In this document: in pieces, positions 1,951 to 43,712 of the stretch
How positions within the stretch are numbered: the first letter of the stretch is position 1
Layout: each line of letters starts with the position of its first letter
From: Oscillospiraceae bacterium
GTDB taxonomy: Bacteria; Bacillota; Clostridia; Oscillospirales; CAG-272
NCBI GenBank assembly: GCA_015063695.1
Contig: SVTQ01000004.1
Coordinates: 3,784-67,783, forward strand
Reading direction: 5' to 3'
Length of the DNA stretch: 64,000 nucleotides
The notes under the pieces: model-generated
What the model saw: the letters and a program-made list of their open reading frames with translations, nothing else
What the model was told of the DNA's origin: nothing
Databases searched by the model: none
Made by a program: the position numbers and the translations under genes

Positions 1951-1991
1951 GAATTTGAGGGGGGCGTGGGGGAACTTTTTAAAGGTCCCCC
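1951..1991 (-). terminator. intrinsic terminator; member of the same repeat family (minus orientation)
   Basis: On the minus strand, GGGGGACCTTTAAAAAGTTCCCCC hairpin then ACGCCCCCCTCAAATTC, directly downstream of the 1998..2198 ORF. Confidence 0.55.
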
Positions 1992-1997
1992 GCATTA

Positions 1998-2198
1998 TTA
2001 TTCAAATCTACCTTCCGCAATTGAGTCGATAATGCGGTCGGTCTCGGCCTTGGTGGCAGATGCGGCGGCGAGGGCCTCGGCGCGGCTTTTCTGTTCGGGT
2101 GACAGCTTTGCGTACTCACTGAGGGCATCACATCTTACTTCAAGCTTCATCACAAGCTCCAGGGGCATACCTGCCATGGGGTTTTTCTCATTTTTCAT
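1998..2198 (-). CDS. small hypothetical protein (66 aa)
   Basis: Stand-alone ORF with its own downstream hairpin and an upstream AT-rich promoter region. I recognise no family. Confidence 0.4.
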   Translation of the reverse strand: MKNEKNPMAGMPLELVMKLEVRCDALSEYAKLSPEQKSRAEALAAASATKAETDRIIDSIAEGRFE

Positions 2199-2419
2199 AA
2201 GCTTTTTCCTCTCTCGGTTCTTTGTATATTTAGTTTCTGTAAGGAGCGGTCAAGGTATTCATGGGAAATTGAGGCAAGAGAAGGAATAAGCAATGCGGAA
2301 AATAAATATCTTTACTTTTGAGAATATTTGTAGTATACTTTATGTTGAGATATTATGGTATACAGTATACTTATATACCGACAACATAAAATAACAAAGA
2401 CACACCGAGGAAAAAAGAA

Positions 2420-3673: not shown

Positions 3674-3721
3674 AAACAAAAAAGCTCTAAAATAAAATAT
3701 AAACAAACGAGGTTTGATAAT

Positions 3722-4681: not shown

Positions 4682-4701
4682 ATATTAAGGAAAGATAAGC
4701 A

Positions 4702-5895
4702 ATGAAAAAAGTAATACTTTGTAAATACGGCGAAATAGTTTTAAAGGGAGCCAACAAGTCCCGTTTTGAGTCAATGCTCCTTAAAGAGCTGCGCCGCCGC
4801 GCCGCAAGAGTCGGCGAGTTCAAGATCTATTATGCTCAAAGCACGGTTTACGTTGAGCCCATTGATCCCGATATGCCCGAGTCTGACTTCGAAGAAATGT
4901 ACACTCAGACAAAGAAGGTCTTCGGCTTTGCGGGCGTTACCGTTGCCGCTTGCGCGGAAAAGAACATGGAAGATATTCTCCGCGTAACCAAGGAATATAT
5001 TCCCGAAAAGCTGGCAGGGGTCAAGACCTTCCGCTGTGTTGCCAAGAGAAGCGACAAGAAGTTCTCTCTCTCTTCTCCCGAAATAGCGGCAGAGGCAGGC
5101 GGAGCAATTCTCTCAGTCATGCACAAGAACATTAAGGTCGATCTTCATAATCCCGAGGTCGAAGTGCGCGTTGAGGTAAGAGAAAAGGAAGCTTACATCC
5201 ACGCAGGTCAGGAAAAGGGCGCCGGCGGTAATCCTCTCGGAAGCGCAGGCCGCGGTCTTCTTCTCCTTTCGGGCGGTATCGACTCCCCCGTTGCAGGCTT
5301 TATGATGGCAAAGCGCGGTATGTACATCGATGCCCTCCATTTTGAAAGCTTCCCCTACACAAGCGAGCGCGCACGAGAAAAGGTGCTTCAGCTTGCGCGT
5401 GAGCTTACTGAGTATACGGGAAGAATACGCGTTCACGTTATTTCCCTTACACATATACAGGAAGTTCTCCGCGACAACTGCGACGAGGATTATTTCACAC
5501 TCCTTCTCCGCCGCTTTATGATGGAGCTTGCGGTCCGTCTTGCCAAGGAATACGAAATTCCCGCGATCATTACGGGAGAGAGCCTCGGTCAGGTTGCAAG
5601 TCAGACACTTCAGGCACTCTGCGTAACAGACGCAGTAGCGGATATTCCCGTTTTCCGCCCCTGCATCGGTATGGACAAGGATGAGATAGTCGCCATCTCC
5701 CGAAAGATAGGTACCTTTGAAACGTCCATTCTTCCCTACGAGGACTGCTGTACCGTATTTACTCCCCGTCATCCCAGAACCAAGCCCATGATCGAAAAGG
5801 TCGTAGCTCAGGAAGAAAAGATCGACCGCGCCGCTCTTCTCGAGGAAGCGTGGGATTCCCGTTATTCCGTTGTTATCCATCAGTTTGAAGACTAA
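4702..5895 (+). CDS. thiI: tRNA 4-thiouridine(8) synthase ThiI
   Basis: 397 aa. N-terminal ferredoxin-like/THUMP region (KYGEIVLKGANKSRFE) and PP-loop SGGIDSPVA. Confidence 0.9.
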   Translation: MKKVILCKYGEIVLKGANKSRFESMLLKELRRRAARVGEFKIYYAQSTVYVEPIDPDMPESDFEEMYTQTKKVFGFAGVTVAACAEKNMEDILRVTKEYIPEKLAGVKTFRCVAKRSDKKFSLSSPEIAAEAGGAILSVMHKNIKVDLHNPEVEVRVEVREKEAYIHAGQEKGAGGNPLGSAGRGLLLLSGGIDSPVAGFMMAKRGMYIDALHFESFPYTSERAREKVLQLARELTEYTGRIRVHVISLTHIQEVLRDNCDEDYFTLLLRRFMMELAVRLAKEYEIPAIITGESLGQVASQTLQALCVTDAVADIPVFRPCIGMDKDEIVAISRKIGTFETSILPYEDCCTVFTPRHPRTKPMIEKVVAQEEKIDRAALLEEAWDSRYSVVIHQFED

Positions 5896-5919
5896 AGTCA
5901 ACTAACGTCAGATTTATTT

Positions 5920-5965
5920 GGGGAACTTTTAAAAAAGTTCCCCAAACCCCTCAAAATTTTTAAAG
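5920..5965 (+). terminator. intrinsic terminator; member of the dual-hairpin repeat family
   Basis: GGGGAACTTTTAAAAAAGTTCCCC hairpin followed by AAACCCCTCAAAATTTTTAAAG, just after the thiI stop. Confidence 0.6.
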
Positions 5966-5972
5966 AAACAAG

Positions 5973-6011
5973 AAAACTCCTGAAGCAGAAATAACTGTTT
6001 CAGGAGTTTTT
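5973..6011. terminator. bidirectional hairpin terminator between thiI and argH
   Basis: AAAA-CTCCTGAAgcagaaataactgtTTCAGGAG-TTTT, i.e. a stem flanked by an A-run and a T-run. Confidence 0.6.
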
Positions 6012-6026
6012 ATTTAGTTTATGAAT

Positions 6027-7403
6027 TTATTCTCCGATAAAAGCTCTGAGGAACGCGATCTGTTCATTTACGCTTGCAAGTCCCGTTCCGCCCTTTGAAA
6101 TTCTCTTTTCAACACAGGTCTTAAGAGAGATCTCATTATAGAGGTCTTCTCTGAAGAGGTCGCTGTACCCGCGGTAGGTTTCAAGAGGAAGCTCTTCAAG
6201 CACCGTTTTTTCATCGATGCAGAGAGCAACGAGCTGACCTACCGTTTTATAAGCTGTTCTGAAGGGCATTCCCTTCTTTACAAGGTAATCTGCAAGGTCG
6301 GTGGCGTTAATAAATCCGTTCTGCGCCGCCCTTAGCATATTTTCCTTTATAACAGACATGGTTGCTATCATGGGACAGAAGACCTTGAGGCACATCTTAA
6401 CGGTTTCAACACTGTCAAAGATAGACTCCTTATCCTCCTGCATATCCTTATTATACGCAAGGGGCAGACCCTTGAGAACTGTAAGCATACCCATAAGATT
6501 TCCGTAGACTCTGCCCGTTTTGCCGCGGACAAGCTCTGCCATATCGGAATTTTTCTTCTGAGGCATGATGCTTGAGCCTGTCGTAAAGGAGTCGTCAAGC
6601 TCAACGAACTTGAACTCCCAGCTTGACCAAAGTATAATTTCCTCTGAAAAACGGGACAGGTGCATCATAAGAGTCGCAAATGCGCTCATAAGCTCAACGC
6701 AATAGTCTCTGTCGGAAACGCCGTCCATAGAGTTGAGCATTACGCCGTCAAAGCCCAGCGCCGCCGCGGTCATATCGCGGTCGGTATCGTAGGTAGTTCC
6801 TGCGAGAGCGCAGGAGCCGAGGGGACTCTCGTTCATTCTCGCAAGAGCATCGCGAAGTCTTGTAACGTCACGGCGAAGCATCATTCCGTATGCAAGGATA
6901 TGGTGAGCAAAGGTTATGGGCTGTGCTCTCTGAAGGTGAGTGTAACCCGGCATAATAGCATCGCGGTTTTCTTCAGCTTTATCGCAGATAACGTCAATAA
7001 GCTCCAAAAGAAGGGCGATTATCTCGTTTACCTCGTCTCTCATATAAAGACGAAGGTCAAGAGCTACCTGGTCATTACGGCTTCTTGCGGTATGGAGCAT
7101 TTTGCCTGCGTCGCCTATTCTTTCGGTGAGAACCTTTTCCACAAACATGTGAATATCCTCACATTCAAGGTCAACAGCAAGGGTGCCGCTTTCCATATCG
7201 GCAAGTATCTTTTCAAGGCCGTCAATGATTGTATCCGCAGCATCGGCAGGGATAATACCCTTTGCCTTAAGCATTGCGGCATGAGCCATTGAGCCCGTTA
7301 TATCCTGACGGTACATTTTTGAGTCAAAGCTTATTGATGAGTTAAAATCATTCGCGGTCTTATCAAGTTCCTTTTTGAACCTTCCCGCCCACATTTTTTC
7401 CAT
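6027..7403 (-). CDS. argH: argininosuccinate lyase
   Basis: 458 aa. MWAGRF start and the fumarate-lyase signature GSSIMPQKKN. Confidence 0.95.
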   Translation of the reverse strand: MEKMWAGRFKKELDKTANDFNSSISFDSKMYRQDITGSMAHAAMLKAKGIIPADAADTIIDGLEKILADMESGTLAVDLECEDIHMFVEKVLTERIGDAGKMLHTARSRNDQVALDLRLYMRDEVNEIIALLLELIDVICDKAEENRDAIMPGYTHLQRAQPITFAHHILAYGMMLRRDVTRLRDALARMNESPLGSCALAGTTYDTDRDMTAAALGFDGVMLNSMDGVSDRDYCVELMSAFATLMMHLSRFSEEIILWSSWEFKFVELDDSFTTGSSIMPQKKNSDMAELVRGKTGRVYGNLMGMLTVLKGLPLAYNKDMQEDKESIFDSVETVKMCLKVFCPMIATMSVIKENMLRAAQNGFINATDLADYLVKKGMPFRTAYKTVGQLVALCIDEKTVLEELPLETYRGYSDLFREDLYNEISLKTCVEKRISKGGTGLASVNEQIAFLRAFIGE

Positions 7404-20045: not shown

Positions 20046-20095
20046 GGCTCTACGCGGTACAACACCATTTTTCGTACCTTCATAGAGCCTTTTTA
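20046..20095 (+). terminator. intrinsic terminator related to hairpin 2 of the 118-bp repeat
   Basis: GGCTCTAcgcggtacaacaccatttttcgtaccttcaTAGAGCC followed by TTTTTA, directly after the arginase-family gene. Confidence 0.6.
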
Positions 20096-22854: not shown

Positions 22855-22924
22855 GGTCGCTTTTTGAAAAAAGCTCCGCAAAAACTTTAAAACGAACCCC
22901 CGAGGGCATGCCCTCGGGGGTTAA
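22855..22924 (+). repeat. ~70-bp terminator-like repeat, left copy (flanks the AT-rich island)
   Basis: GGTCGCTTTTTGAAAAAAGCTCCGCAAAAACTTT (34 nt identical to 27531..27564), then hairpin AACCCCCGAGGGcatgCCCTCGGGGGTT. Confidence 0.8.
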
Positions 22925-23204
22925 ATACTTTATTGACTTATAAACACACAGAACTGTCCCCTGTGTTTTTATAAAAATCAGTTAGACCCATCATTTTGAG
23001 GTTTTCCTCTATGATGGGTTTAATGTCTATATACATAATATGAAGCCGCAGTAAACGCGGCAAGTGTTATTCTAAACGCCCAGATCGAAAAAATAGAAAA
23101 AATTCTATCAACGGAGAGGGCGGGTAAAATCCGCCCTTGATTTTGTTTGTTCATCTGCTATAATAGAATTATAGAAACTTGTATCTAGATGGAGGAATTT
23201 GAGT

Positions 23205-23849
23205 GTGAAATATCATTACTATTCAACACCCGATGAGATGAAGCACCTTGAAGCATGGGGATTCAATTGGCTTGAATTTGTAACTTCTATCCCTGCACCT
23301 ATGTTTCTTGTTACATCATATAAATCAAACGGAAAAGCAAATGCTTGTATGCAATCATTTGCAAGTTTTACAACAGGAGATAGAGGAGCGCGTTTTTTTG
23401 CAATTCTTTCGAGTGTGAACAAAAGCGGACATTTGTATAAAACAATAATTGAAAATGGATGTGCAGTAATAAACTTCATGTCGGCAGATTTCTACGACAA
23501 TTCTATGGAAACCATAAAGAATAATCAGTTTGAAGTTGATGAGATATTAGAATCAAAATTAACAAGTGTACCCGCAGATAAAGTAAATGCACCTATGGTA
23601 GAGGAATGTTTTATGAATTTGGAGTGTAGGTTTTCTTGGGAAAAAGAAATCGCTCCAAATGATGACCATGTTATTATCTGCTTTGAAGTTGTGAATGTTC
23701 ATATCGATAAAAACCATCTTGATAATCGCGTTGAAGAGAACGGAATACTTTACAACATTCATTATCCTATAAACCCAGAAAAGTATAGCGGTAAAGCACA
23801 TGATTATGTAGGTATTGTAAAACCGTTAATTGATGCAGGTGAATATTGA
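23205..23849 (+). CDS. flavin reductase-like (FMN-binding split-barrel) domain protein
   Basis: About 214 aa. The pattern PAPMFLVTSYKSNGKANACMQSF...GCAVINF is typical of flavin_reduct domains. The start is ambiguous: TTG 23199, or GTG 23205, which is better spaced from the GGAGGA RBS. Confidence 0.65.
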   Translation: MKYHYYSTPDEMKHLEAWGFNWLEFVTSIPAPMFLVTSYKSNGKANACMQSFASFTTGDRGARFFAILSSVNKSGHLYKTIIENGCAVINFMSADFYDNSMETIKNNQFEVDEILESKLTSVPADKVNAPMVEECFMNLECRFSWEKEIAPNDDHVIICFEVVNVHIDKNHLDNRVEENGILYNIHYPINPEKYSGKAHDYVGIVKPLIDAGEY

Positions 23850-23913
23850 CCTACTATGGCAGACCGAAGGTAGTTTCAATTTGTAAAAAAATCAAGCCAC
23901 GGAGGGCTAAAAA

Positions 23914-24327
23914 ATGTTAGGATATAATGCTATAGTTGTATTCAATAAAGAAACAGATAAAATGTTGATGTGCAAAAGAAGACATAATCCGTATAAGGGA
24001 TTGTCAAATTTTGTTGGCGGAAAAATAGAAGAAAATGAGAATGGTTTAGATGCGGCATACAGAGAGCTTGAAGAAGAAACCACAATAACAAAAAACGATA
24101 TTATTCTTTCTCATTTAATGGACTTTACATATCACCTTGGAAATTGTTATCTTGAAGTTTATGTTGAAAATTTGAATAAATTAATTGATGTTAGCGGAGA
24201 TGAAAATGATCTGTATTGGTCAACATTAGACCATAATTTTTTTGATGCAACACAATATGCGGGAGAAGGAAATATCGGGCATATTATGATGCATGTTGAA
24301 ATGTTCAAGGAAAAATTATTAAAATAA
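23914..24327 (+). CDS. NUDIX hydrolase
   Basis: 137 aa. Nudix box GGKIEENENGLDAAYRELEEETTI. Confidence 0.85.
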   Translation: MLGYNAIVVFNKETDKMLMCKRRHNPYKGLSNFVGGKIEENENGLDAAYRELEEETTITKNDIILSHLMDFTYHLGNCYLEVYVENLNKLIDVSGDENDLYWSTLDHNFFDATQYAGEGNIGHIMMHVEMFKEKLLK

Positions 24328-24359
24328 AAGATGAACTTGAATTTGCAGGGGGAATAAAT

Positions 24360-24881
24360 ATGGGTAATGCTATATTAGTCTGCGGTTTGAACGGAGCAGG
24401 AAAAAGCACACTGGCAAAAGCACTTGCCGAAAGATTAAATCTCCGCTTTATTGATATTGAAGATATATACTTTGAAAGCCAAGACAATCCTGATTATCCG
24501 TATGAAAAATCCCGTCCCTACGAAGAGGTTGTATCATTGCTTGCAAACATTGTAAACGGTGAAAATGACTTCGTTTTGGCATCGGTAACAGGTGATTTCG
24601 GAGATGAATTTATTTCTCATTTGAAGTGTGTAATTTCCGTTGAAGTTTCAAGGGAGATACGATTAAAGCGAGTACACGATAGGTCATACACACTTTTCGG
24701 TGAAAAGAGTTATAAAGGCGGAGATTTTTACGAGCAAATCAAGTCGTTCCATAAATTTTGTGCATCAAGAGATGAAAACTTGGTTAACGATTGGCTAACC
24801 ACTATATGCTGCCCCATTATTAGAGTAGATGGAACGCTACCGATATGTGACAATGTAAATCTAATTGCCGAAGAATTGTAA
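24360..24881 (+). CDS. small P-loop NTPase / kinase-like protein
   Basis: 173 aa. Walker A GLNGAGKST at the N-terminus; size and layout of nucleoside/shikimate-kinase-like AAA proteins. Confidence 0.6.
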   Translation: MGNAILVCGLNGAGKSTLAKALAERLNLRFIDIEDIYFESQDNPDYPYEKSRPYEEVVSLLANIVNGENDFVLASVTGDFGDEFISHLKCVISVEVSREIRLKRVHDRSYTLFGEKSYKGGDFYEQIKSFHKFCASRDENLVNDWLTTICCPIIRVDGTLPICDNVNLIAEEL

Positions 24882-25017
24882 AACAAATTCCCAATTTATC
24901 GAATTGATATGCCGGAGCGGGACGTGACAATCATGGGACAGTCCCCTGATTGAAGCAGTTTATATATCACTCAAAAATTGTTTTTTATGTATATCCATAT
25001 AAATTAAGGAGTTCATT

Positions 25018-25614
25018 TTGAAAACAAATATAACGTTTCTAAGAGACTGGCTCATAACACTTTTAATAACTACCTTACTGTGGGATTTTGTCGGCGGTAT
25101 TTTTCTACTCATAGCACGATTTATATTCCCGAAACAAGCAGACCATTTTTTGTTTTTTGGCATAATTGGGACTATTGTCTTTTGCTGTGTATTGGCAATA
25201 AGATCGTATAAGTCAGGTTTAGATATTAACGGAAAACGTATTCCTGTGTCGTTGGCCATGCCGATAGCGAGCATGATCATTGCGCTTGGCGTTTATATAG
25301 TTGCTTATATAATATCGGGGTGTAATTATATTGCAGGGCCTGTTGCACATTCATATGTTACCGTGTTTTGGGGCAATGGCGTAGACCAAGCCTTTATTCA
25401 CGATATTACTATGTCTCAACATCTTTCCGTTTTTGTTCCGCTTGGATCATTGTATGTAGCCGTTTCTTTGGGTGCGTACATTTTAGCGAAGTATAAACAG
25501 GATCATCATAACAGTGTCGTTCGCAAATTAAGGGAAGAGGATATGCAAAAGAAATCCGACGATCCCTTTGAAGAAGCGTTAAAAAACGGATTAGGTAACA
25601 GAAAACATAGGTAG
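25018..25614 (+). CDS. hypothetical integral membrane protein
   Basis: 198 aa. About 4 predicted TM helices and a charged C-terminal tail. TTG start with AAGGAG 7 nt upstream. Confidence 0.5.
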   Translation: MKTNITFLRDWLITLLITTLLWDFVGGIFLLIARFIFPKQADHFLFFGIIGTIVFCCVLAIRSYKSGLDINGKRIPVSLAMPIASMIIALGVYIVAYIISGCNYIAGPVAHSYVTVFWGNGVDQAFIHDITMSQHLSVFVPLGSLYVAVSLGAYILAKYKQDHHNSVVRKLREEDMQKKSDDPFEEALKNGLGNRKHR

Positions 25615-25701
25615 TTATACTTGTGATTTAATGAAATAAAACATCTCCACTTGAGTTTAAACTTTTGATATAACCCTTATTATTCTTACATAGAGGTAAA
25701 A

Positions 25702-26574
25702 ATGAACAGGAAATATAAAAAAAGTAAAATTGAAATAAACAAATATACATGTTCCCGACTACTCTCTGACCATAACAATAAAGCGCTGATTTCAACATTC
25801 TCATGTTCCAAAAACCCGTCTCTTGCGGCACACTTAAAACGAAAAGCGTGGTTTGAAGAACAAAACAATAAACGAGCACATTTTCTCGTCAAAGAAGATA
25901 ATAAAATCGTCTTATATTTTTCATTACAATGCGGTATATTGGTACAAGCACATAAAAAAATACTTAGCGGTATAAATCATCGAGAAACAGATACCGGAAC
26001 AGAATATTTTATTGATGACGATATAATTGACGTTACGAAAACTATTCCCGCAATTGAACTTTCACACTTTTGTGTAAACGATTCATACCGAAACAAAAAA
26101 AGTGAATGGGTTGTTTACAATGGTCCCTTCACATACAAAGTCGGAGAGTATTGCTTTTATCAATATGTCGCTCCTATTGTTATCGATATTGCCGAAAAGG
26201 TCGGAGTAGAAATTCTTTATCTTTTTTGTGCAGACGAAGGAAGCGACAAATTGCTTGAATATTATTCTTCCCTAAACTTTAAAATAATGGATGATATGGC
26301 ATGTGTAAGATCTGACTACGAAAGCAATCTCTCGTGTTTAACTCAAAAAATCTGTGATTTAAAAAAATCCACCCAAGAGTTCATGAATGAGAAAAAAGCA
26401 AACGATATTTTAACATACTTGAAAACACACAAAAATATAAGCATACAAAAAATCAAAAAAATAACTGAACTTTCTAATACATATGTTCTTTTAAATAAAC
26501 TCATTAAAGAAAATCTAATAGAAGAAGATTCAGAACGAAAACATACATACGTATTAAAACAAAAATCTTTGTAA
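25702..26574 (+). CDS. hypothetical protein, GNAT-like core plus C-terminal winged-helix-like tail
   Basis: 290 aa. IELSHFCVNDSYRNKK and KLLEYYSSLNFKIM resemble GNAT beta4 and alpha4. The C-terminal ~70 aa (ILTYLKTHKNISIQKIKKITELSNTYVLLNKLIKENLIE) look wHTH-like. Confidence 0.4.
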   Translation: MNRKYKKSKIEINKYTCSRLLSDHNNKALISTFSCSKNPSLAAHLKRKAWFEEQNNKRAHFLVKEDNKIVLYFSLQCGILVQAHKKILSGINHRETDTGTEYFIDDDIIDVTKTIPAIELSHFCVNDSYRNKKSEWVVYNGPFTYKVGEYCFYQYVAPIVIDIAEKVGVEILYLFCADEGSDKLLEYYSSLNFKIMDDMACVRSDYESNLSCLTQKICDLKKSTQEFMNEKKANDILTYLKTHKNISIQKIKKITELSNTYVLLNKLIKENLIEEDSERKHTYVLKQKSL

Positions 26575-26614
26575 ATGTACGAAAAATTAGTGGTTTACCG
26601 ATAGAGGGCACATT

Positions 26615-27529
26615 ATGGAAAACACGGTAAGAAGTATTGCCGAAAAACATTTCGGACAGGATATTGAATCTATAGAACCTTTGGGCGGCGGATTTTACGG
26701 GAGAGTTTTTCTTGTTAAAATGAAAAAAGCTCCGTTTTCGGCGGTGGTCAAGCTTTATCTGTTTGACGGATTTGCAGTAAATGAAGCTTTGCAACTTAAA
26801 ACTCTCTCTCGACACTCAAAACTGAAAATGCCCGAAGTTTACGGTGTTTACAAGGCAGGGGAAACAGGGCTTCCCCACGATGCTTTGATCATGGAATTTC
26901 TTGACGGAGTAAATGCAGGGTGGCTTGACGTTTCCGCTCTTTCTTCGGATGCGAAAAACACAATATGCGAAAATATTGTTGATAACCTAATCTCTATTCA
27001 CAGCAAGGCGAACTTTGAAGGCTTCGGAGAGCTCTCCCAAAAAGAATTCTTTCCCACGTGGCAGGAATTTTACCGCCCCAAAGCAAAACGAATTGTTGAA
27101 AAAGCGCGATATCTGAAAAGTATAGGTCAAATCTCCGATTACGTTATGGACGTATTTGAAAGCTCCTTTGAAAACTTTGATAAGATATTTTGCCTTCCAA
27201 TTACCGAGGCTCGTCTTATTCACGGAGATTACAACACGTGGAATATTATGCTTAACGACGAAAAAAGCCGAGCAGAATACGTGATCGATCCTTTCGGCTG
27301 TTGCTTCGGTGACAGCGAATACGACCTTTATCAACTTGATAACGCCAACGGAAAAGATTACGGACTTTTAAAAAGATACGCCGAAAAAGTAACTTTAAGT
27401 GAAAACTTTATTCAGAAAAGATATTTTTATGAGCTTTACTCGGAGATAAGCCACTACCACGATGCCCGTGTCCCCGTTGACTTTGCCGCCGCTGAGCGCA
27501 TGGCAAATAATCTTTCAGAATTTTTATAA
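26615..27529 (+). CDS. aminoglycoside-phosphotransferase / fructosamine-kinase-fold kinase
   Basis: 304 aa. Catalytic loop HGDYNTWNIM and downstream IDPFGCCFGD, as in the APH/choline-kinase fold. Confidence 0.75.
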   Translation: MENTVRSIAEKHFGQDIESIEPLGGGFYGRVFLVKMKKAPFSAVVKLYLFDGFAVNEALQLKTLSRHSKLKMPEVYGVYKAGETGLPHDALIMEFLDGVNAGWLDVSALSSDAKNTICENIVDNLISIHSKANFEGFGELSQKEFFPTWQEFYRPKAKRIVEKARYLKSIGQISDYVMDVFESSFENFDKIFCLPITEARLIHGDYNTWNIMLNDEKSRAEYVIDPFGCCFGDSEYDLYQLDNANGKDYGLLKRYAEKVTLSENFIQKRYFYELYSEISHYHDARVPVDFAAAERMANNLSEFL

Positions 27530-27530
27530 A

Positions 27531-27604
27531 GGTCGCTTTTTGAAAAAAGCTCCGCAAAAACTTTTAAAGAGAACCCCCGAATGCTCACACATTCGGGGGT
27601 TAAG
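27531..27604 (+). repeat. ~70-bp terminator-like repeat, right copy
   Basis: Same 34-nt core as 22855..22888, then hairpin AACCCCCGAATGctcacacATTCGGGGGTT. The outer stem is conserved; the inner stem differs but still pairs. Confidence 0.8.
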
Positions 27605-27650
27605 TGTTTGTATTGGAGTTTTAGAATAAACAGAACCGGCACGGGGGTTT

Positions 27651-29888
27651 TCATTTGATTGTTAGTTTCAAAGCTTCATCCGGTTTTACACTATAGGCGG
27701 TGATTATTGCGGTGCTGTTTTCAAAAGTAAATTTTGTTTCGTGAGTGGGACAAGAAACAGTCTTGACGGGGGAAGCATTTCTGATTTCGAAAGTTATGTT
27801 ACGGGAGGAAACCTCGCCGTCGAAGCCGTTGCCTTCTTTTTTGAGGGTTATTTCAATAAAGTTTTCCTTTTCCTCGTAGAAGATCCTTGTAAGTCTGTGT
27901 CCAACCTTTTCGCTTATTCCGTCATCTTCATAAAGAACACTTTCTCCATCAGCCCCGGCATAGATAACAACGGTGGGCTCTGTCAGCTTTTCACTTGTCA
28001 TTCTGCTTGTATAGGGTTGAGTTACTAAAGGAAATCCTGCTTTTGCAAAGAGGGGGAAGGTTTCAATGCCGTGTTCTACGGTGTATTCTCTACCGCCCTC
28101 GAAGCTTTCGCCGCTGAAAATATCGTACCATACCCCTTCGGGGAGCCACAAGGCTTTCTTTGCAACGTAGTTTTCATCCCCTGCAGAGCAAATGGGGGAA
28201 ACGAGAAGACCGTCGCCCAACAAATAGGTTGAAGGGTAATTATAGGAGTTTTCGTTTTGGGGTTCTTCGATATACAAAGGCTTCAGAAGGGGTAGCCCTT
28301 TTTCACAGCACTCGTAAGCCGAAGAATAAATATATGGGAAAAGTTTTGAACGAAGAGCGTATGATTTTTTCATGGACGAAGCAAAAGGCTCTGCCCACGT
28401 CCAAGGGCGTCTGTCCAGCCCTTCAACTCCGCACATATGAACACGGAGCGCGGGGCTCATTGCGCCGAACTGCACCCAACGGGCATAGACTTCACCCTGC
28501 CCTCCGGGCACGTCGTCCTGAAAACCGCCGATGTCGTGACTCCAGAAAAAGCATCCTGCGTTTCCTGCAGTAACTGTCATTTGCACCTGGAAATCAAGGG
28601 TCTCAAAAGAAGTAACCGTATCGCCCGAGAACCAGGCGGGATGTTTGTGGTCCCCGAAGCCGCCCCATCTGGAGAAGGACATACCGCGCCTTTTTGCTGT
28701 ACCTTTTTCGTCCTTTAGTTTTGCATTTTCATAGTATAGGTGGTTCAGCCATCTCAAATGGGAAAGACCCTTTATGCCGTTTACGTTGGGGTAGAGGTAG
28801 TCCTGTTGCCAGTCAAGCCAGCGAAATGCGATATCTTTTTCTTCCATTTCTCTGTTTGTAGCATCAAAAAACGCCTTCATATAACGGAAGTCTCCCGCAT
28901 TGAAACGGTAGTTAATATTTTTCTTTTTGGGATTTTCTTTTTCTCTTTCGGATATTCTCTCCGTAACGTCGGGAACAGTTTCTTTGTACCCTGCGGCGGA
29001 AAGCTTTTCTGCAAAAACGGCGAAGCACTCGTCTGCATCACGCACCCCGTCGCAGGGGTGATCGTTGAGAACTACGGAAACTCCCTTTTCCGAAAGGGAA
29101 TTAATAAGTCCGTCCGGATCGGGAATCAGTCTTCTGTTCCATGTGTAGCCTGTCCAGCCTAAGTTCTGCCCTGCGTGGCCGTAGCCGTAGAGATAGTAAG
29201 GCTCGCCGTGGGCGTGCCCCCAGTCCTGATAGTGCCAGTCCATATCAAAAACAAGAATGTCAAGGGGAAAACCGTTCTCTTCGTATTCATCGGCAATCTT
29301 CAAAAATTCTTCTGCCGTGTAGGGCCACCAACGGGAATACCATGACCCGAAAAAGTTCTTTCTCGGAAGGGGCGCTTTTCCCGAAACTGCGAAAAAGTCG
29401 GAAAAAGCCGCTTTATAATCGGCGCCGTAGGCAAAAAGATAAAAATCGTGAAGGTGTTTTTCACTTCTGTTTTTTGCCCAGCCGTCCCAAAGGACGGGAC
29501 TGCAGGAATCGTCTATTACCTGCCAACCGTCACGGGAAAGAAGTCCGTCGGGAACTTCTCTGAAACCCGAAACTCCGTCAAGAGTATGAAGGGTTCCTTT
29601 TAAGTTTTCTTTGTTTTTGTCGCCATAGTGCCAACGGCAAGACGTTCCGCCTGCGTGAATATCAGCATAAAGAGTATCGCGAGAAAACTCTCCGCCGTGA
29701 TAGTAAAGAGTAAGCTTTTCCGTCTTAACGGTCAGAATTTCACTGTCCGTTACCTCTGCATCACATTCAACACCGCGAAGGGCAAAGAGAGTGGGTGCAT
29801 CCTCAAAGACACCGTCTTTGGCATATTCAATTCTGACAGCCCCCTCGGTTATAACCGTAAATCGGGCATTACCTTTTACAATTTTCAT
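27651..29888 (-). CDS. glycoside hydrolase family 31 (alpha-glucosidase/alpha-xylosidase-like)
   Basis: 745 aa. N-terminal RFTVITEGAVRIEY beta-sandwich, ILVFDMDWH and FFWSHDIGGF catalytic-region motifs, and a C-terminal beta-sandwich. Confidence 0.8.
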   Translation of the reverse strand: MKIVKGNARFTVITEGAVRIEYAKDGVFEDAPTLFALRGVECDAEVTDSEILTVKTEKLTLYYHGGEFSRDTLYADIHAGGTSCRWHYGDKNKENLKGTLHTLDGVSGFREVPDGLLSRDGWQVIDDSCSPVLWDGWAKNRSEKHLHDFYLFAYGADYKAAFSDFFAVSGKAPLPRKNFFGSWYSRWWPYTAEEFLKIADEYEENGFPLDILVFDMDWHYQDWGHAHGEPYYLYGYGHAGQNLGWTGYTWNRRLIPDPDGLINSLSEKGVSVVLNDHPCDGVRDADECFAVFAEKLSAAGYKETVPDVTERISEREKENPKKKNINYRFNAGDFRYMKAFFDATNREMEEKDIAFRWLDWQQDYLYPNVNGIKGLSHLRWLNHLYYENAKLKDEKGTAKRRGMSFSRWGGFGDHKHPAWFSGDTVTSFETLDFQVQMTVTAGNAGCFFWSHDIGGFQDDVPGGQGEVYARWVQFGAMSPALRVHMCGVEGLDRRPWTWAEPFASSMKKSYALRSKLFPYIYSSAYECCEKGLPLLKPLYIEEPQNENSYNYPSTYLLGDGLLVSPICSAGDENYVAKKALWLPEGVWYDIFSGESFEGGREYTVEHGIETFPLFAKAGFPLVTQPYTSRMTSEKLTEPTVVIYAGADGESVLYEDDGISEKVGHRLTRIFYEEKENFIEITLKKEGNGFDGEVSSRNITFEIRNASPVKTVSCPTHETKFTFENSTAIITAYSVKPDEALKLTIK

Positions 29889-29974
29889 ATTTCCCTCTAA
29901 AAATGTTTTCTGTTTTAATGGTATACTATTTTTCTCTGTTAGTCAACGAATTTTTATAACATAACCCAAACAAA

Positions 29975-30092
29975 CGGGACGTCGAAGCGCGTCCCCTACG
30001 AAATAAGATGAAAACTCCTGCTTGTGATATAAATAAAAAATAGGCTCTATGCAGTACAACCACGTTTTGGTGTACCAACATAGAGCCGTTTT
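29975..30092 (+). repeat. 118-bp direct repeat, copy A (flanks the Fic cassette)
   Basis: CGGGACGTCGAAGCGCGTCCCCTACGAAATAAGATGAAAACT...AGGCTCTATGCAGTACAACCACGTTTTGGTGTACCAACATAGAGCC; about 90 percent identical by eye to 31355..31472. Confidence 0.85.
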
Positions 30093-30099
30093 TCGGTTT

Positions 30100-31206
30100 T
30101 TACGAGTTTGAAATTTTGGAAACTATCTCTTTTTTATTCTTTTTTGTGAATTCACTTAATGAATATGAACGAACCCTCTCTTTTACAATATTAGGAATTA
30201 AAAATCCATTCGCTGTGAGTTTAACACAACGGTTAATAATTGTTTTGTTGGTGACACCGAATTTTTTACTCACTTCAATTGGAGTGAATTCAAACAAATG
30301 ATTATTAATAAGAAATAACAAAAGTCCTTTTTCTTTTTCGTTCAGATATGACAAACTACCGTCCAATTCATCAGCGGTTGAGTTCCTTGACAGCTCGCAG
30401 ACCTTTTTTGAGTAAAGTTCCATCATACGAAGGAAATAGTTTATCCAGATTTCAGGGTGAGGCGGATTCTCTCTGCCCGAATAATACAATGCCGGCAAGC
30501 CCATTTGAAGCGATGCATAGTATTCGTCGGAATCATATGCGAAATACTCTTCAAGAGAACCGATACCGCCAAAACCGTAACCGTAAAAATCAAGAACGTA
30601 TCCCGACATCAGTCGTGCTGTTCGACCATTGCCATCTTCAAAAGGATGAATAGTAACCAACTGATAGTGAACGACCGCAGCAATAATAAGAGGATGATCA
30701 TCTGTTGTATTTACATATTCTACGAGTTCATCAATAAGTCCGGGAAGCTCGCTGTACTCGGGCGGTATATATTCAGGGGGACCGCTTTCCGAGTCATATA
30801 CGGCAAATAATACCCCCGGAGGCATTGCGCCTCTGAGTCCGATCTTTTCTTTTGAGGCTCCTTTTTCAACCATTGCCTGAACTTCAAGCAGCAGCTTTTT
30901 GGAAAACGGTTCTTTTGCTTTGAGTTTTTCTTCAAGCAAGTTAAGGGCGAGAAAATAATTTCTCACTTCCTGTTCCGGTTTCAGAAAATGTTTATGTGCA
31001 TCGCTTTCCATTGCCTCGTTTGCTTGTTCCTCTGTTAATGGATTTCCTTCAATTTTATTGGAGGCATACGAACTTTTCTTTTTGGAATTTTTTCTGAGCC
31101 TGTTTTTAGTAAGTTGAGGAACTTCAATCGTTTTAAAAGAAAAGCGGTTTTCATCAATAGCAGATATCTTTTTTAATATATCGTTTGTTAACGTAACCTT
31201 TATCAT
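30100..31206 (-). CDS. Fic-family protein (AMPylase-type) with C-terminal wHTH
   Basis: 368 aa. Active-site HPFEDGNGRTARL, N-terminal inhibitory-helix motif SNKIEGN (S-x3-E-G), and a C-terminal HTH-like segment (KFGVTNKTIINRCVKLTANGFL). Confidence 0.9.
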   Translation of the reverse strand: MIKVTLTNDILKKISAIDENRFSFKTIEVPQLTKNRLRKNSKKKSSYASNKIEGNPLTEEQANEAMESDAHKHFLKPEQEVRNYFLALNLLEEKLKAKEPFSKKLLLEVQAMVEKGASKEKIGLRGAMPPGVLFAVYDSESGPPEYIPPEYSELPGLIDELVEYVNTTDDHPLIIAAVVHYQLVTIHPFEDGNGRTARLMSGYVLDFYGYGFGGIGSLEEYFAYDSDEYYASLQMGLPALYYSGRENPPHPEIWINYFLRMMELYSKKVCELSRNSTADELDGSLSYLNEKEKGLLLFLINNHLFEFTPIEVSKKFGVTNKTIINRCVKLTANGFLIPNIVKERVRSYSLSEFTKKNKKEIVSKISNS

Positions 31207-31354
31207 AACACCATCCCCTTGCGTTTACTAATTATATTATATCATAATGAAACGAAAAATTCCATTATTTTTACACTATTTTTACACTATTTTTCATTAA
31301 GAAACGAAACCAGATCAGAGGACATGTTCCTTGATCGACCGAAATCTCACGTAA

Positions 31355-31472
31355 TCGGGACGTCGAGGCGCCGTCCCCTACGAAATAAGATGAAAACTAC
31401 TGCTGTTATATAAATAAAAAATAGGCTCTGTGCAGTACGACCACGTTTTGGTGTGCCAACATAGAGCCGTTT
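31355..31472 (+). repeat. 118-bp direct repeat, copy B
   Basis: Same two-hairpin element as 29975..30092, in the same orientation. Confidence 0.85.
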
Positions 31473-31494
31473 ATTTTTATAATATTTCTGTTTG

Positions 31495-31561
31495 TTCCCC
31501 TTTTCCCGTTTAAAAGTTTTAAAGGGGGTCAAAGGGGGAAACTTTTTCAAAAGTTTCCCCC
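31495..31561 (-). terminator. intrinsic terminator; member of the dual-hairpin repeat family (minus orientation)
   Basis: On the minus strand, GGGGGAAACTTTTGAAAAAGTTTCCCCC then TTTGACCCCCTTTAAAACTTTTAAAC, directly downstream of the aminotransferase stop. Confidence 0.6.
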
Positions 31562-31570
31562 TTAATACTC

Positions 31571-32857
31571 TTATTCAAATGATTTCAGGTACTTTTCGCA
31601 GGCTGCCTTTTTGATACAGAGGCAGAGTATCTCAACTGCCATCTGAAGCTCCTCGTTGTCGGGGAAGGTAGGCGCAATTCTGAGGTTTCTGTCTCTGGGG
31701 TCACGTCCGTAGGGGAAGGTTGCGCCTGCAGGAGTGAGGGACACGCCGTTTTTCATGGCCAGTCTGTAAACTCTTCTTGCAAGACCATCTTCAACGTTAA
31801 GGCTGATGAAGTAACCGCCCTTGGGCTCGTTCCATTCGGCAATACCGAGACCTTCAAGCTCACGCTTAAAGATACTTGTTACGATATCAAATTTGGGCTT
31901 GATTATCTGCGCGTGACGCTTCATGTGTGCATGAATGCCTTCCGCATTCTTGAAATACTTAACGTGACGCATCTGGTTTATCTTATCGTAACCGATGGTC
32001 TGTGTGCCGAGGATGGGCTTTATATGCTCAATGTTCTTTTCACTTGCCGCCATGATAGCAACACCGGAACCGGGGTAGGATATCTTGGAGGTTGAAGCAA
32101 AATAGAAGATCTGATCCTGTGTTCCGTACTTTTCAGCCGCCTTGAAGATGTTCATGAGCTCAACCTTTTCGTCGGTGAGTTCGTGCACACAATAAGCATT
32201 ATCCCAGAAAATTCTGAAGTCGGGAGCCGCAGGGCGGAGAGCCGCGAACTGTTCAACTACTTCATCGGAATAGGTGATGCCCTCGGGATTGGAGAACTTG
32301 GGAACACACCATATACCCTTAACCGCAGGGCTGGAGCAGGCAATTTCGTTTACCGCATCCATATTGGGACCGTCGGGAGTCATTTCAACGGGAATGAGCT
32401 CAATACCGAGCTTCTGACAGATAGCAAAATGTCTGTCATATCCGGGGCTGGGACAGATAAACTTGATTCTACCCTGACGGCCCCAAGGCTCGTAACCGCC
32501 TGCAACACCGAAGAGCATTGCGCGGACGATAGTGTCAAACATAACATTCAGAGAGGAGTTGCCGAGAACCATGATGCGCTCGGGGGGAATATCAAGAAGG
32601 TCGGAGAAGAGCTTCTTTGTTTCGGGCAGACCGTCAAGAATACCGTAGTTTCTGCAGTCGAGACCGTTTTCGGAGAAGCAGTCCTCGCGGGTAGAGATAA
32701 CGCTGAGCATATCTGTAGTCAGGTCAAGCTGAGCCTGACCGGGCTTACCTCTTGTAAGGTCAAGATGAAGATCTCGCGCTTCCCATTCTTTGAGAGCGGC
32801 ATTGACTTCGTCATAATAGTTTAAAAGCTGTTCCTTAGAAAAGTTGCGAAGTTCCAT
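31571..32857 (-). CDS. class I/II-fold PLP-dependent aminotransferase
   Basis: The PLP-lysine context ASTSKISYPGSG fits the fold. I prefer the ATG at 32857 (MELRNFSKEQ), with GAAAGGA upstream, over the track start at 32908. Confidence 0.75.
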   Translation of the reverse strand: MELRNFSKEQLLNYYDEVNAALKEWEARDLHLDLTRGKPGQAQLDLTTDMLSVISTREDCFSENGLDCRNYGILDGLPETKKLFSDLLDIPPERIMVLGNSSLNVMFDTIVRAMLFGVAGGYEPWGRQGRIKFICPSPGYDRHFAICQKLGIELIPVEMTPDGPNMDAVNEIACSSPAVKGIWCVPKFSNPEGITYSDEVVEQFAALRPAAPDFRIFWDNAYCVHELTDEKVELMNIFKAAEKYGTQDQIFYFASTSKISYPGSGVAIMAASEKNIEHIKPILGTQTIGYDKINQMRHVKYFKNAEGIHAHMKRHAQIIKPKFDIVTSIFKRELEGLGIAEWNEPKGGYFISLNVEDGLARRVYRLAMKNGVSLTPAGATFPYGRDPRDRNLRIAPTFPDNEELQMAVEILCLCIKKAACEKYLKSFE

Positions 32858-33028
32858 TTTTTCATGTCCTTTCGACAATTTTTGAAATATTTTCTCTAAA
32901 AATTGCAAAAAATATTTGCTATCAGCAGATATTATACCATATATTGCCTCAAATTACAAGTGTTATATGGAATTCTTTCAAAATTATTCCGAGATGCAAA
33001 AAAGAAAGACCTCTCCCGAGGCCTTTCT

Positions 33029-42690: not shown

Positions 42691-42707
42691 ATATGGAGGA
42701 CATAAAA

Positions 42708-43712
42708 ATGCCCGAATATATACCGCCGTATGAAATTACGGATAAAATTTTAAGTCTTGTTGCTTCCATTTCAGAAAAAATCGGAAGAATTACAGAACGA
42801 AGCAGTCTGAGTTCAAAACCTCACTTAAGAAAAAATAACAAGATCAAATCTATTTACTCTTCTCTTGCAATTGAGGCAAATTCTCTTTCCTTTGGAGAAG
42901 TAAAAGACGTTATAAGCGGAAAAACTGTTATTGGAAAAGAAAAAGAGATACAGGAAGTAAAAAATGCTTATGCCGCTTATGAGGAAGTATCAAAGCTTGA
43001 CGTTTACAGCTTGAAAGAGCTGAAGCGTCTGCACGGTATCATGACTAAATATACCGTTAATATCAGCGGTGAGTTCAGGCGCGGAGAAGAGGGAGTCTTC
43101 AACGGAGACAAGTGCATTTTTATGGCTCCGCCCGCAAGATTTGTTCCCTCTCAAATGGAAGACCTTTTCAACTGGATGACAGAAAAAAAGGATACTGTAC
43201 ATCCGCTTATACTTTCCGCCGTTTTCCATTATGAATTTGTTTTTATTCATCCTTTTACCGACGGAAACGGAAGAATGGCCCGTTTGTGGCATACGGCGCT
43301 CCTTGCAAAATGGCAACCGATTTTTGAATATATTCCCATAGAAAGCCAGATTGAAAAATTCCAAAACGGTTATTATGATGCAATCGCAAAATGCCACAAA
43401 GAAAGCAGCAGTACATTTTTTATAGAGTTTATGCTTGAGCAGATATACACAATTCTTAATGAAGTTTCTGCCACCGTTACCTCTCCTTTCGATAATCTTT
43501 CCGAATACGTTACAAGGCTCCTTTCGGTGATGAAGTATGATAAAGCATATTCTGCAAATGAGATCCTCGCCTTGCTTGGACTAAAATCCAAAGAGACGTT
43601 AAGAAAGAATTATCTGACCCCCGCAATCAAAGATGGTCTGATAAGTATGAGCGAACCGGATAAGCCGAGAAGTAAAAACCAACGATATATTAAAACTCAT
43701 AGTGCTGATTAA
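42708..43712 (+). CDS. Fic-family protein
   Basis: Active-site HPFTDGNGRMARLW. N-terminal helix SLAIEAN, where Ala follows the inhibitory Glu instead of G/N. I prefer the ATG at 42708 (MPEYIPPYE), with GGAGGA 7 nt upstream, over 42693. Confidence 0.9.
   Translation: MPEYIPPYEITDKILSLVASISEKIGRITERSSLSSKPHLRKNNKIKSIYSSLAIEANSLSFGEVKDVISGKTVIGKEKEIQEVKNAYAAYEEVSKLDVYSLKELKRLHGIMTKYTVNISGEFRRGEEGVFNGDKCIFMAPPARFVPSQMEDLFNWMTEKKDTVHPLILSAVFHYEFVFIHPFTDGNGRMARLWHTALLAKWQPIFEYIPIESQIEKFQNGYYDAIAKCHKESSSTFFIEFMLEQIYTILNEVSATVTSPFDNLSEYVTRLLSVMKYDKAYSANEILALLGLKSKETLRKNYLTPAIKDGLISMSEPDKPRSKNQRYIKTHSAD

Follow-up and report, generated by a model that had tools for sequence, protein, structure and literature searches.

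The window is the whole stretch of 64,000 nt that was analyzed, from the 1.85-Mb genome of an uncultured Oscillospiraceae bacterium (Clostridia). The locus described here consists of a Fic gene enclosed by two direct repeats and situated between an aspartate aminotransferase gene, upstream on the coding strand, and a GH31 glycosidase gene with its promoter, downstream (Table 1). As the preliminary description had noted, Fic is the only content between the repeats, where it is the sole intact gene, and no recombinase was found in or beside the insert. The neighbors are GH31, aminotransferase, TraX, and kinase genes, with no integrase, transposase, or prophage inside or adjacent to the insert. 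A promoter-like site of the GH31 gene lies at 29946 to 29918.

Table 1. Features of the Fic locus and its flanks, in window positions
Feature	Positions	Strand	Details
GH31 glycosidase gene	27651..29946	-	PF01055, PF21365, PF17137
Left repeat copy	29975..30092	-	HP2 30043-30087 with T-run; 43-nt spacer; REP hairpin 29975-29999
Fic gene	30100..31206	-	368 aa; PF02661 (6e-17); predicted class II
Conserved Fic control region	31236..31299	-	Three 11-bp-phased AATA(G/A)TG repeats and an extended -10
Leader between repeat and conserved Fic unit	31300..31354	-	55 nt; imperfect palindrome 31312-31335; no homology to other Fic loci
Right repeat copy	31355..31472	-	HP2 31424-31468 with minus-strand T-run; 42-nt spacer; REP hairpin with GTAG head 31356-31381
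G5/C5 palindromic intergenic repeat	31483..31570	.	Perfect 15-bp arms 31532-31563
Aspartate aminotransferase gene	31571..32908	-	PF12897 (E = 6.7e-164)

The repeats had been described as co-oriented, about 90% identical, and each carrying two hairpins, and all of this was borne out. They are 118 bp long, and their alignment of 121 columns has 7 mismatches and 2 single-base indels (92.6% identity); both hairpins are present in both copies. The longest perfect blocks that the two copies share are 27 and 22 nt, and identity drops sharply to background right past both ends. Read on the gene strand, each copy consists of a long terminator hairpin (HP2) with a T-run, then a spacer of ∼43 nt, then a GTAG-headed REP hairpin (hairpin 1; 29976 to 29995 and 31357 to 31377). 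The left copy starts 8 nt past the Fic stop codon, and its HP2 with T-run begins 12 nt past it. The REP hairpin of the left copy has two private loop changes, and 27 to 30 nt of the REP part of the right copy are 100% identical to copies in many other genera. A whole-genome search returned exactly two full 118-bp copies (E = 8e-57 and 1.5e-43), far beyond chance. An Rfam scan of 29000 to 32500 at a permissive E value gave only chance matches, and the repeat corresponds to no known RNA.

The same arrangement is found at 99.8 to 100% identity in three independent metagenome contigs (L040, L041, and L228; JGI samples 3300032167, 3300029705, and 3300024269), so it is not an assembly artifact. The cassette is kept in all three strains/samples. 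Since the two repeat copies are 7% apart while the strains differ by only 0.2%, the event that produced the arrangement is old and the Fic gene has been stably kept.

The two hairpins have different affiliations. Hairpin 1 belongs to a GTAG-headed REP family with ∼90 copies in the genome, a family present in 34 of the 97 genera of this bacterial family. Among 401 genomes of the bacterial family, 68 have identical 27- to 30-nt REP copies, in no case with the remainder of the 118 bp, and the 118-bp repeat itself is absent from all 401. The genome analyzed here also has RAYT-like Y1 transposase genes with the same hairpins, and the RAYT-like gene of C13 has this REP subfamily. HP2 has diverged relatives on C40, on C1, and at 20046 to 20095 of the window, the last of these having been pointed out earlier and proving real. 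They form a small family whose other members lack both spacer and REP. Only the 25-nt REP module and the diverged HP2 module of the repeat thus recur elsewhere. REP-containing modules are tandemly duplicated elsewhere in the genome (with a 106-nt period on C14), C15 has two same-strand REP copies 57 nt apart, and the modular REP/hairpin elements of this genome often lie just beyond stop codons. The fragment of hairpin 1 that had been placed at 24923 to 24955, in the island at 23 to 27 kb, is located at 24918 to 24949 and is a weak relative without the GTAG head.

Because HP2 is followed by TATTTTTTATTTAT on the minus strand, it would act as a terminator for both the aminotransferase and Fic genes. 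The insert had been positioned downstream of the aminotransferase terminator. It does lie behind the aminotransferase gene, but the palindrome at 31532 to 31563 has no T-run after it and belongs to the separate G5/C5 family, which has many copies of 83 to 93% identity in genomes of the genus and whose GGGGGAAACTTT occurs 13 times in this genome with both strands counted. The functional aminotransferase terminator is more probably HP2 of the right repeat copy than this palindrome.

The Fic protein has an intact active site, HPFEDGNGRTARL (residues 187 to 199), that is invariant across 19 homologs, and an intact inhibitory motif, SNKIEGN (residues 49 to 55), in which S49, I52, E53, and G54 are invariant in the homolog comparison. 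It is predicted to be a class II enzyme auto-inhibited by Glu53. The C-terminal wHTH recognized earlier is backed by an AlphaFold (AF2) model, in which residues ∼290 to 350 adopt an H-H-H-beta-beta order with pLDDT values of 83 to 93. Upstream of the gene, the cores of the AATA(G/A)TG repeats begin at 31291, 31280, and 31269, the extended −10 TGATATAAT occupies 31244 to 31236, and the promoter tandem seen previously, two copies of TTTTTACACTA, spans 31270 to 31291. Phased repeat pairs were found upstream of 27 of 31 homologous genes versus 0.1% of control windows. Identity of the control region reaches 97% over 34 nt, compared to ∼70% for the coding DNA, and the region occurs only once in this genome.

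The GC content is 0.379 for the Fic gene and 0.37 for the insert, compared to 0.46 for the genome; the low G+C count reported for 30301 to 30360 (15 of 60) was reproduced. Fic is absent from 60 relatives, in which nothing exceeded 34% identity. Thousands of Fic-wHTH homologs reach 84 to 89% amino acid identity across bacterial families, and homologs in this range occur in Clostridia, Lachnospiraceae, Oscillospiraceae, and others, in unrelated neighborhoods. Because of its low GC content, its absence from relatives, and the presence of such close homologs in unrelated contexts, the Fic gene is a foreign, horizontally acquired single-gene module. The Fic subfamily is clearly horizontally mobile. 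Some of its members are carried on large-serine-recombinase elements, and phage carriage of close homologs was limited to 2 IMG/VR contigs. The Fic-wHTH proteins form a separate clostridial subfamily that is tightly conserved, very widespread, and distinguished by 11-bp operator repeats of its own.

The DNA that is common to this and other Fic loci comprises only ∼93 nt of promoter plus the ORF, beginning at ∼31299 to 31304 and ending at the stop codon. With shared DNA confined to the interval from 31299 to the stop codon, a terminator is not part of the Fic module, and the repeat is not carried along by it. The 118-bp repeat lies beside 0 of ∼29 other loci of the subfamily. Nor do long flanking repeats of any kind occur at these ∼29 homologous loci, where the only flanking matches are short: L054, a clear case with a 23-nt partial terminator duplication (z = 4.1), and L070, a marginal one with a 14-nt match. 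Because the repeat is absent from the homologous loci, which share promoter and ORF only, it is local host sequence and not an att site travelling with Fic. Its native character agrees with the REP family of hairpin 1 and the diverged relatives of HP2 in the genome.

No single-copy (empty) site was found in any genome or contig examined, and nothing closer than the closest species was found. Aminotransferase orthologs with 82 to 89% amino acid identity exist in all species of the genus, where the 118-bp segment never follows them, and none of the 7 other species has the aminotransferase gene next to GH31. In the closest species (G006), the two lie on different contigs, with other neighbors and a different gene order; the DNA of this species is 81% identical over 27653 to 29946, in the GH31 gene, and the homology stops 28 nt short of the repeat. 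GH31 orthologs of 73 to 81% identity in L229 and L230 are preceded by a Gfo/Idh/MocA or AlbA_2/HATPase gene, not by the aminotransferase. A GH31-based metagenome scan gave nothing above 60% identity. Every contig recovered by exact-protein look-ups either matched the window at 99.8% identity or was identical to it, and each had the cassette; the look-up with the aminotransferase recovered no contigs. An exact 21-mer from the repeat spacer had 0 matches in JGI metagenomes and IMG/VR. A 31-nt spacer match in G005 was dismissed as chance, falling as it does inside a frame open in both strands. The check suggested earlier, for the 118-bp element elsewhere with empty sites or other cargo, was therefore negative in the genome, the relatives, and the metagenomes searched.

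We favor, with roughly even confidence, insertion with long target duplication, the aminotransferase terminator having been the target and the repeats not being the ends of a self-moving cassette. In the mechanism that we infer, a foreign promoter-plus-ORF Fic module would have inserted behind the aminotransferase gene. The aminotransferase gene and the incoming, terminator-less Fic gene would each have come to have the same bidirectional terminator, one copy apiece, an outcome that would also insulate the downstream GH31 gene. Among the strains sampled the insertion is fixed, and it is old. Of the features that mark long target duplication, flanking repeats of >30 bp that exist in two copies only and the lack of an integrase, transposase, or prophage are found here. 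Other repeat-bracketed segments, several of them low in GC, are present in the same genome (C44, C13, C1, C11, and the AT-rich island at 22855 to 27654 of the window). The C11 segment is an RHS-toxin island between 163-bp repeats; as these take in 92 nt from the tail of a host gene, the repeat there must be a duplicated target.

Insertion with long target duplication was described for restriction-modification genes (Nobusato et al. 2000, Gene 259:99; Furuta et al. 2010, PMC2853133), which were found with flanking repeats of 46 to 423 bp and no mobility gene (PMC2853133). In both situations a small foreign unit of toxin or defense type, with GC unlike that of the host and no integrase or transposase, is bracketed by direct repeats, whose length ranges from tens to hundreds of base pairs. 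Such repeats occur nowhere else in the genome, are made of local sequence, and often cover the stop codon or terminator of the neighbor. The Fic locus differs in that its cargo is Fic and includes no restriction-modification genes, its repeats are 93% rather than nearly 100% identical, its target is a terminator-REP composite, and no empty site, the defining comparison, was found. Several points weigh against long target duplication at this locus. The search for an empty site was negative, and the gene order of the closest species is different. The copies are 7% apart, which means either an old duplication or copies that never were identical. REP/hairpin modules near stop codons can duplicate in tandem, so the two copies could predate or postdate the Fic insertion. 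Flanking duplication is exceptional in the Fic subfamily, with one clear and one marginal case in ∼30 loci. To our knowledge, long target duplication has no established mechanism even in the literature.

A less probable, still serious alternative is that the repeats have nothing to do with the arrival of Fic. The gene could have landed by chance between pre-existing tandem terminator-REP copies, a recognized class of event (“chance insertion between repeats,” PMC2853133), or the 118-bp module could be a low-copy mobile intergenic element, dispersed by the REP/RAYT machinery, that inserted independently past the aminotransferase and Fic stop codons. That hairpin 1 is a bona fide REP with RAYT-like genes carrying the same hairpins, that REP modules lie in tandem on C14 and as a close pair on C15, that HP2-like hairpins form a small family, and that the left copy starts so near the Fic stop codon all agree with this idea. 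However, the composite unit including its spacer exists only here, with none elsewhere in the genome, in the 401 genomes, or in the metagenome and viral collections, and the C11 island shows that targets are duplicated in this genome. Alternatively, Fic may have inserted without duplication, and the terminator-REP segment may later have been copied by ectopic gene conversion or template switching and kept as a block on read-through into GH31. A module whose homology ends at the stop codon, with no terminator of its own, beside an HP2 that is a good coding-strand terminator, would suit such a history. We consider it improbable, as gene conversion needs flanking homology and none is visible where identity drops at both ends, and as two events are invoked where one suffices.

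The preliminary description proposed a mobile cassette between the repeats, and in its active form a one-gene, 1.38-kb circle would be excised via the repeats and re-integrate, Campbell fashion, at any repeat copy. The topology is right, with direct repeats around one foreign gene of a mobile subfamily, and in view of the homology that RecA requires, the 27- and 22-nt perfect blocks might barely suffice for rare excision. Yet no other site, cargo, or single-copy target came to light anywhere searched, the other Fic loci have promoter and ORF in common without such repeats, some homologs use large-serine-recombinase elements instead, no recombinase is present, all three strains/samples keep the cassette, and the repeat divergence is far above that between strains. 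Hairpin 1, moreover, is an ordinary host REP. We regard active excision and re-integration as having a low probability, and the evidence does not support an actively mobile cassette; the Campbell-type layout is one that insertion behind the aminotransferase would produce, whether by single crossover or with target duplication, the repeat being no part of a mobile cassette. Least probable is that a RAYT/IS200-type Y1 transposase, working in trans, moved a REP-bounded unit in single-stranded form, with the REP hairpins as left and right ends. IS200/IS605 elements have same-strand subterminal hairpins at their ends, and the two REP hairpins here share one orientation and a subfamily with the C13 RAYT-like gene. 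Set against this, the repeat runs ∼90 nt past the REP hairpin, a single locus with no other insertion is involved, Fic homologs elsewhere lack REPs, and we know of no documented REP-bounded gene movement by RAYTs. An integron gene cassette with attC was rejected by inspection, the repeat ends GTTTTTC, GTTTATT, and GTTTGTT having no R''/R' cores (RYYYAAC ... GTTRRRY), and an integron array was rejected with a single gene that has its own promoter and two hairpins unrelated to each other. Xer/dif-like sites were likewise rejected, inspection having revealed no core motifs of this kind.

Hairpin 1 resembles the REP/BIME elements associated with TnpA_REP of Escherichia coli in having a GTAG head and a GC-rich imperfect palindrome, in being intergenic and multicopy, and in the presence of cognate Y1 transposase genes. 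The likeness is limited in that REPs account for only 25 of the 118 bp, and duplication of a whole segment around a gene is no known RAYT product. How lone defense or toxin genes enter genomes without a recombinase is poorly understood, and for long target duplication outside restriction-modification systems this locus, together with its sibling islands, provides a clean candidate, one that points to terminator/REP hairpins as the insertion target. As a rather unlikely extension, recombinase-free insertion at terminator/REP hairpin segments behind stop codons might be a regular entry route for single accessory (defense or toxin) genes in the Ruminococcaceae-like lineage, with at least 5 such events, Fic included, in the 1.85-Mb genome; hairpins, or RAYT nicking of REPs, might make the staggered breaks that become duplicated.

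The earlier comparison to single-gene anti-phage Fic systems of SoFic type agrees with the class II motif, the wHTH, and the PADLOC SoFic HMM (PDLC03963), which matches residues 9 to 351 over 329 of 361 positions (2.9e-43). Like SoFic of Shewanella oneidensis (3eqx, 3zcn; PMC12249575), the protein combines the inhibitory helix (S/T)xxxE(G/N) of class II, HxFx(D/E)GNGRxxR, and a C-terminal wHTH, and it matches over its full length in both HMM and fold. It differs from SoFic in its ∼19% identity, in having no small AS1-like gene downstream, and in its clostridial subfamily, and with NCBIfam equivalog NF046030 it scores 42 bits where the cutoff for orthology to S. oneidensis SoFic is 550. It is of SoFic type by architecture, yet of a distinct subfamily. 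Full-length Foldseek matches of the model were 7xux, 3zcn, and 3eqx (TM scores of 0.52 to 0.58). The first, CccR of Yersinia pseudotuberculosis (PMC9755527), ranks first in the PDB by both sequence and fold and likewise joins a Fic domain to a C-terminal HTH; it uses its DNA-binding domain to repress the promoter of its own gene, and AMPylation makes it toxic. The two proteins share 22% identity, and CccR is a T6SS-secreted effector, whereas no secretion context is seen here and the operator consists of helically phased direct repeats. By these comparisons, the Fic protein is probably a SoFic-type toxic AMP-transferase and possibly has a role in phage defense. By analogy with CccR, its wHTH would bind at the Fic promoter, to the three AATAGTG repeats with their 11-bp phasing, which suggests autoregulation. 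The conserved, 11-bp-phased operator makes both autoregulation and the activating signal directly testable.

The Fic gene is flanked by two co-oriented copies of the 118-bp repeat, which are separated by 7 mismatches and 2 single-base indels. Right beyond either end, similarity is at background level. Only these two full copies were found in the assembly (1.85 Mb, 45 contigs searched; E values of 8e-57 and 1.5e-43). The same layout is present in three independent metagenome contigs (JGI 3300032167 and 3300029705, 100% identity; 3300024269, 99.8%), the last of which has 5 SNPs relative to the window and none in the repeats. Therefore, the structure is real and not an assembly artefact. The sequence details of the preliminary description were correct, including both hairpins, the HPFEDGNGRTARL and SNKIEGN motifs, the TTTTTACACTA tandem, and 15/60 G+C at 30301-30360. 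The observation is thus confirmed, and its interpretation as a mobile one-gene cassette is supported in part. In the closest species, gene order differs from that of the window, and its homology to the window ends at 29946, 28 nt short of the left copy.

Positions of the Fic locus, its repeats, and related features (unprefixed, window positions; prefix C, contigs of the same genome)
Feature	Position	Strand	Remarks
Aspartate aminotransferase gene	31571-32908	minus	PF12897
Fic gene	30100-31206	minus	PF02661
GH31 glycosidase gene	27651-29888	minus	
118-bp repeat	29975-30092 (left); 31355-31472 (right)		
HP2 (hairpin 2 of the repeat), long two-tier hairpin	30043-30087 (left); 31424-31468 (right)		then TATTTTTTATTTAT on minus strand
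REP copies in the window	29975-29999 and 31356-31381		
RAYT-like ORFs	C13:39562-40086; C14:39033-39620; C34:38659-39234		PF01797
RHS-toxin island, 8.4 kb	between C11:103-265 and C11:8627-8789		163-bp direct repeats, 96% identical
AT-rich six-gene island (GC 0.30-0.38)	between 22855-22972 and 27531-27654		two-copy direct repeat, 77% over about 120 nt
AMP-binding-enzyme gene (601 aa, GC 0.35)	between C44:18215-18518 and C44:21120-21423		304-bp repeats, 96%
A-X-B'-A'-Y-B arrangement	C13:20036-27185		gene 5' ends duplicated at 95%
Low-GC two-gene module (168-aa and 110-aa proteins)	between C1:34995-35053 and C1:35987-36045		59-bp HP2-like terminator hairpins, 88%

On the minus (coding) strand, each copy consists of HP2, a spacer, and a GC-rich hairpin. 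HP2 is a bidirectional intrinsic terminator, because an A-run and a T-run flank the hairpin on either side. The spacer measures 43 nt in the left copy and 42 nt in the right, and its first 18 nt fall within a 27-nt block that shows no difference between the copies. The final hairpin, with GTAG ahead of it and a G behind, is a REP element. A genome scan located 97 GTAG-plus-palindrome sites, nearly all built as GTAGGG(G/C)-stem-loop-stem-CC(C/G)G, and the GTAG-headed REP hairpins of the genome number about 90. Each of three RAYT-like Y1-transposase ORFs carries two inverted copies of its cognate REP inside the reading frame, where they encode peptides such as VGEGLAPP and GGASPSPT and bracket the HUH motif. 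The C13 ORF carries the subfamily to which the REP in the 118-bp repeat can be assigned. This REP part recurs in 68 of 401 genomes of the bacterial family, spanning 34 genera, with up to 100% identity over 27 to 30 nt, and in none of them was it joined to the other 90 nt of the unit. Diverged relatives of HP2 occur at 20046-20095 in the window and on contigs C40 and C1. The 118-bp unit is therefore a composite of native intergenic modules. By the preliminary description, the mobile-cassette reading would be refuted if the repeat were a common intergenic element; this is true of the modules, as REP and HP2 both recur, but not of the composite, which is unique to the Fic locus. A copy of the intergenic G5/C5 repeat (AAGGGGGAAACTTTT/AAAAGTTTCCCCCTT), a palindromic family with many copies in this genome and across the genus, lies at 31483-31570, immediately past the aminotransferase stop codon.

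Both 118-bp copies contribute to the differences between them. Compared with the REP sequence shared across the family, two changes in the REP loop are private to the left copy. In the right copy, three A-to-G changes fall in the stems of HP2, where G-T pairing survives on the plus strand alone. These changes fit slow drift of both copies.

The sequence data indicate that the Fic gene was acquired. Its GC content is 0.38 versus 0.47 to 0.49 for its neighbors and 0.46 for the genome, and no homolog more than 34% identical was found in 60 related genomes, 7 of them from the same genus. Relatives in a large protein collection number in the thousands, and the best 120 are 84 to 99% identical and labeled Clostridia, Candidatus Fimenecus, Oscillospiraceae, or Lachnospiraceae. 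GTDB species genomes add homologs from Acetatifactor, Blautia, Agathobacter, Coprococcus, Pseudobutyrivibrio, and Erysipelotrichaceae, and others at 57 to 69% identity from a Treponema, an Eggerthellaceae, and a Kiritimatiellae MAG, before identity falls sharply from about 53% to 28%. The neighborhoods of these homologs are mutually unrelated and comprise dockerin genes, MatE and HAD genes, a YoeB/YefM pair with an aminotransferase, tRNAs with a DeoR gene, ABC transporter genes, and once a large serine recombinase with ToxN. In this last setting (L232, a GCA_965349985.1 contig, positions 731-6655), an 89% identical homolog adjoins the recombinase, ToxN toxin, GNAT genes, and an SASP gene; the subfamily has probably spread by way of such a setting. 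Homologs of 80 to 82% identity are also carried by two IMG/VR contigs. Elsewhere in the window, at a distance of 11 kb and behind XRE genes, is a second, unrelated Fic gene (42693-43712) whose core is 32% identical.

The PADLOC SoFic model matched the Fic protein over almost its full length (2.9e-43), and the NCBIfam SoFic equivalog scored 42 bits, far under its cutoff of 550. In an AlphaFold model (19 homologs; mean pLDDT of 71, 83 to 93 in the wHTH), the Fic core is helical and the chain ends in a winged helix with the order H-H-H-beta-beta. Foldseek aligned CccR (7xux) and SoFic (3zcn, 3eqx) over the whole chain, and phmmer ranked CccR 7xux first. CccR uses a DNA-binding domain at its C terminus to repress its own promoter, and its toxicity comes from AMPylation (PMC9755527); Sofic has been described as an abortive-infection AMPylase (PMC12249575). 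We infer that the protein is an autoregulated AMP-transferase of the SoFic kind, auto-inhibited through Glu53, for which a defense role is plausible. The earlier proposal of an acquired, recombinase-free gene of SoFic type is upheld.

DNA similarity between other Fic loci and the window always begins at 31299-31304 and stops at the stop codon. Therefore, what is shared is the ORF and a control region of some 93 nt, without a terminator and without the 118-bp repeat. The control region, a single occurrence in the genome, contains three AATA(G/A)TG repeats phased at 11 bp and an extended -10 box, and its conservation exceeds that of the coding DNA (in Pseudobutyrivibrio, 97% over 34 nt). Phased core pairs lie upstream of 27 of 31 homologs versus 0.1% of control windows. 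The direct repeats cover the -35 region (31258-31299; also loci L042-L089) in 2 to 5 copies and are kept down to 57% protein identity; they are probably the operator of the Fic wHTH.

The 118-bp repeat is host sequence and no companion of Fic elsewhere, and therefore its copies are not element-borne att sites. Rather than the ends of a mobile cassette, as first described, they are a duplicated host terminator-REP sequence. Among about 29 other loci of the subfamily tested for flanking repeats, only L054 was positive, with a 23-nt partial copy of a tRNA terminator on both sides of Fic (z = 4.1). In L054-L061, the Fic unit directly follows two tRNA genes, and the 3' half of the tRNA terminator (TTAGGCGGTGCTTTTTATTTTTA), which lies about 190 nt ahead of Fic, recurs some 70 nt past it, a small-scale echo of the window. 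[quoted passage not shown] The incoming unit lacks a terminator; since the event, HP2 has served as the terminator of both the aminotransferase and Fic genes, and the GH31 glycosidase gene retains its own promoter. This type of insertion has been described for restriction-modification genes, with repeats of 46 to 423 bp, no mobility genes, and often a position across a neighbor's stop region (PMC2853133).

That the copies predate Fic or came independently of it is doubtful, and would accord with the REP modules of this genome, which lie directly behind stop codons and can undergo tandem duplication. An actively excising and reintegrating cassette, as first envisaged, is unlikely: neither another site nor another cargo is known, the cassette is retained in all three strains, and the repeats have diverged by 7% versus 0.2% between strains. 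Assuming that the copies started out identical, the event would therefore be some thirty times older than the strain split. Current mobility is unsupported. Secondary copying of the terminator seems equally improbable, and RAYT-mediated transfer of a REP-bounded unit would be the most surprising origin. The defining evidence for target duplication would be an empty site with a single copy of the repeat; none was found in the genomes and metagenome collections covered, which yielded no cassette-free genome or contig closer than the closest species.

Insertion with long target duplication is also the pattern matched by further repeat-bracketed segments of this genome, several of them low in GC, whose flanking repeats mostly occur in two copies only. 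The C11 island encodes a 2,046-aa RHS-repeat toxin and two small genes. Because its repeats hold the last 92 nt of a xylose-isomerase-like TIM-barrel host gene plus the terminator, leaving a stranded gene tail, they can only be duplicated target, and the island is a clear long target duplication. The AT-rich island, 2.3 kb from the Fic locus, has the same architecture, and the core of its repeat (AAGCTCCGCAAAAA) occurs only twice in the genome. The C44 repeats hold copies of a 23S-rRNA-IVS four-helix-bundle gene. On C13, the duplicated 5' ends belong to a membrane-protein gene and a gene whose product begins MSQWDKEYI (possibly thymidylate-synthase-like, a guess from the N terminus alone), arranged around two secreted-protein genes (566 and 976 aa). 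The HP2-like terminators on C1 are members of a family that numbers about 5 copies genome-wide. Interest would rise if several of these islands shared one hairpin-targeted mechanism. The GH31 flanks are a hotspot for accessory genes. In another species, on L229 (Logan SRR29514811; 597-2039 and 4806-5470), an 81% identical GH31 ortholog has an AlbA_2/HATPase_c_4 gene upstream and a RelE/HTH pair downstream.
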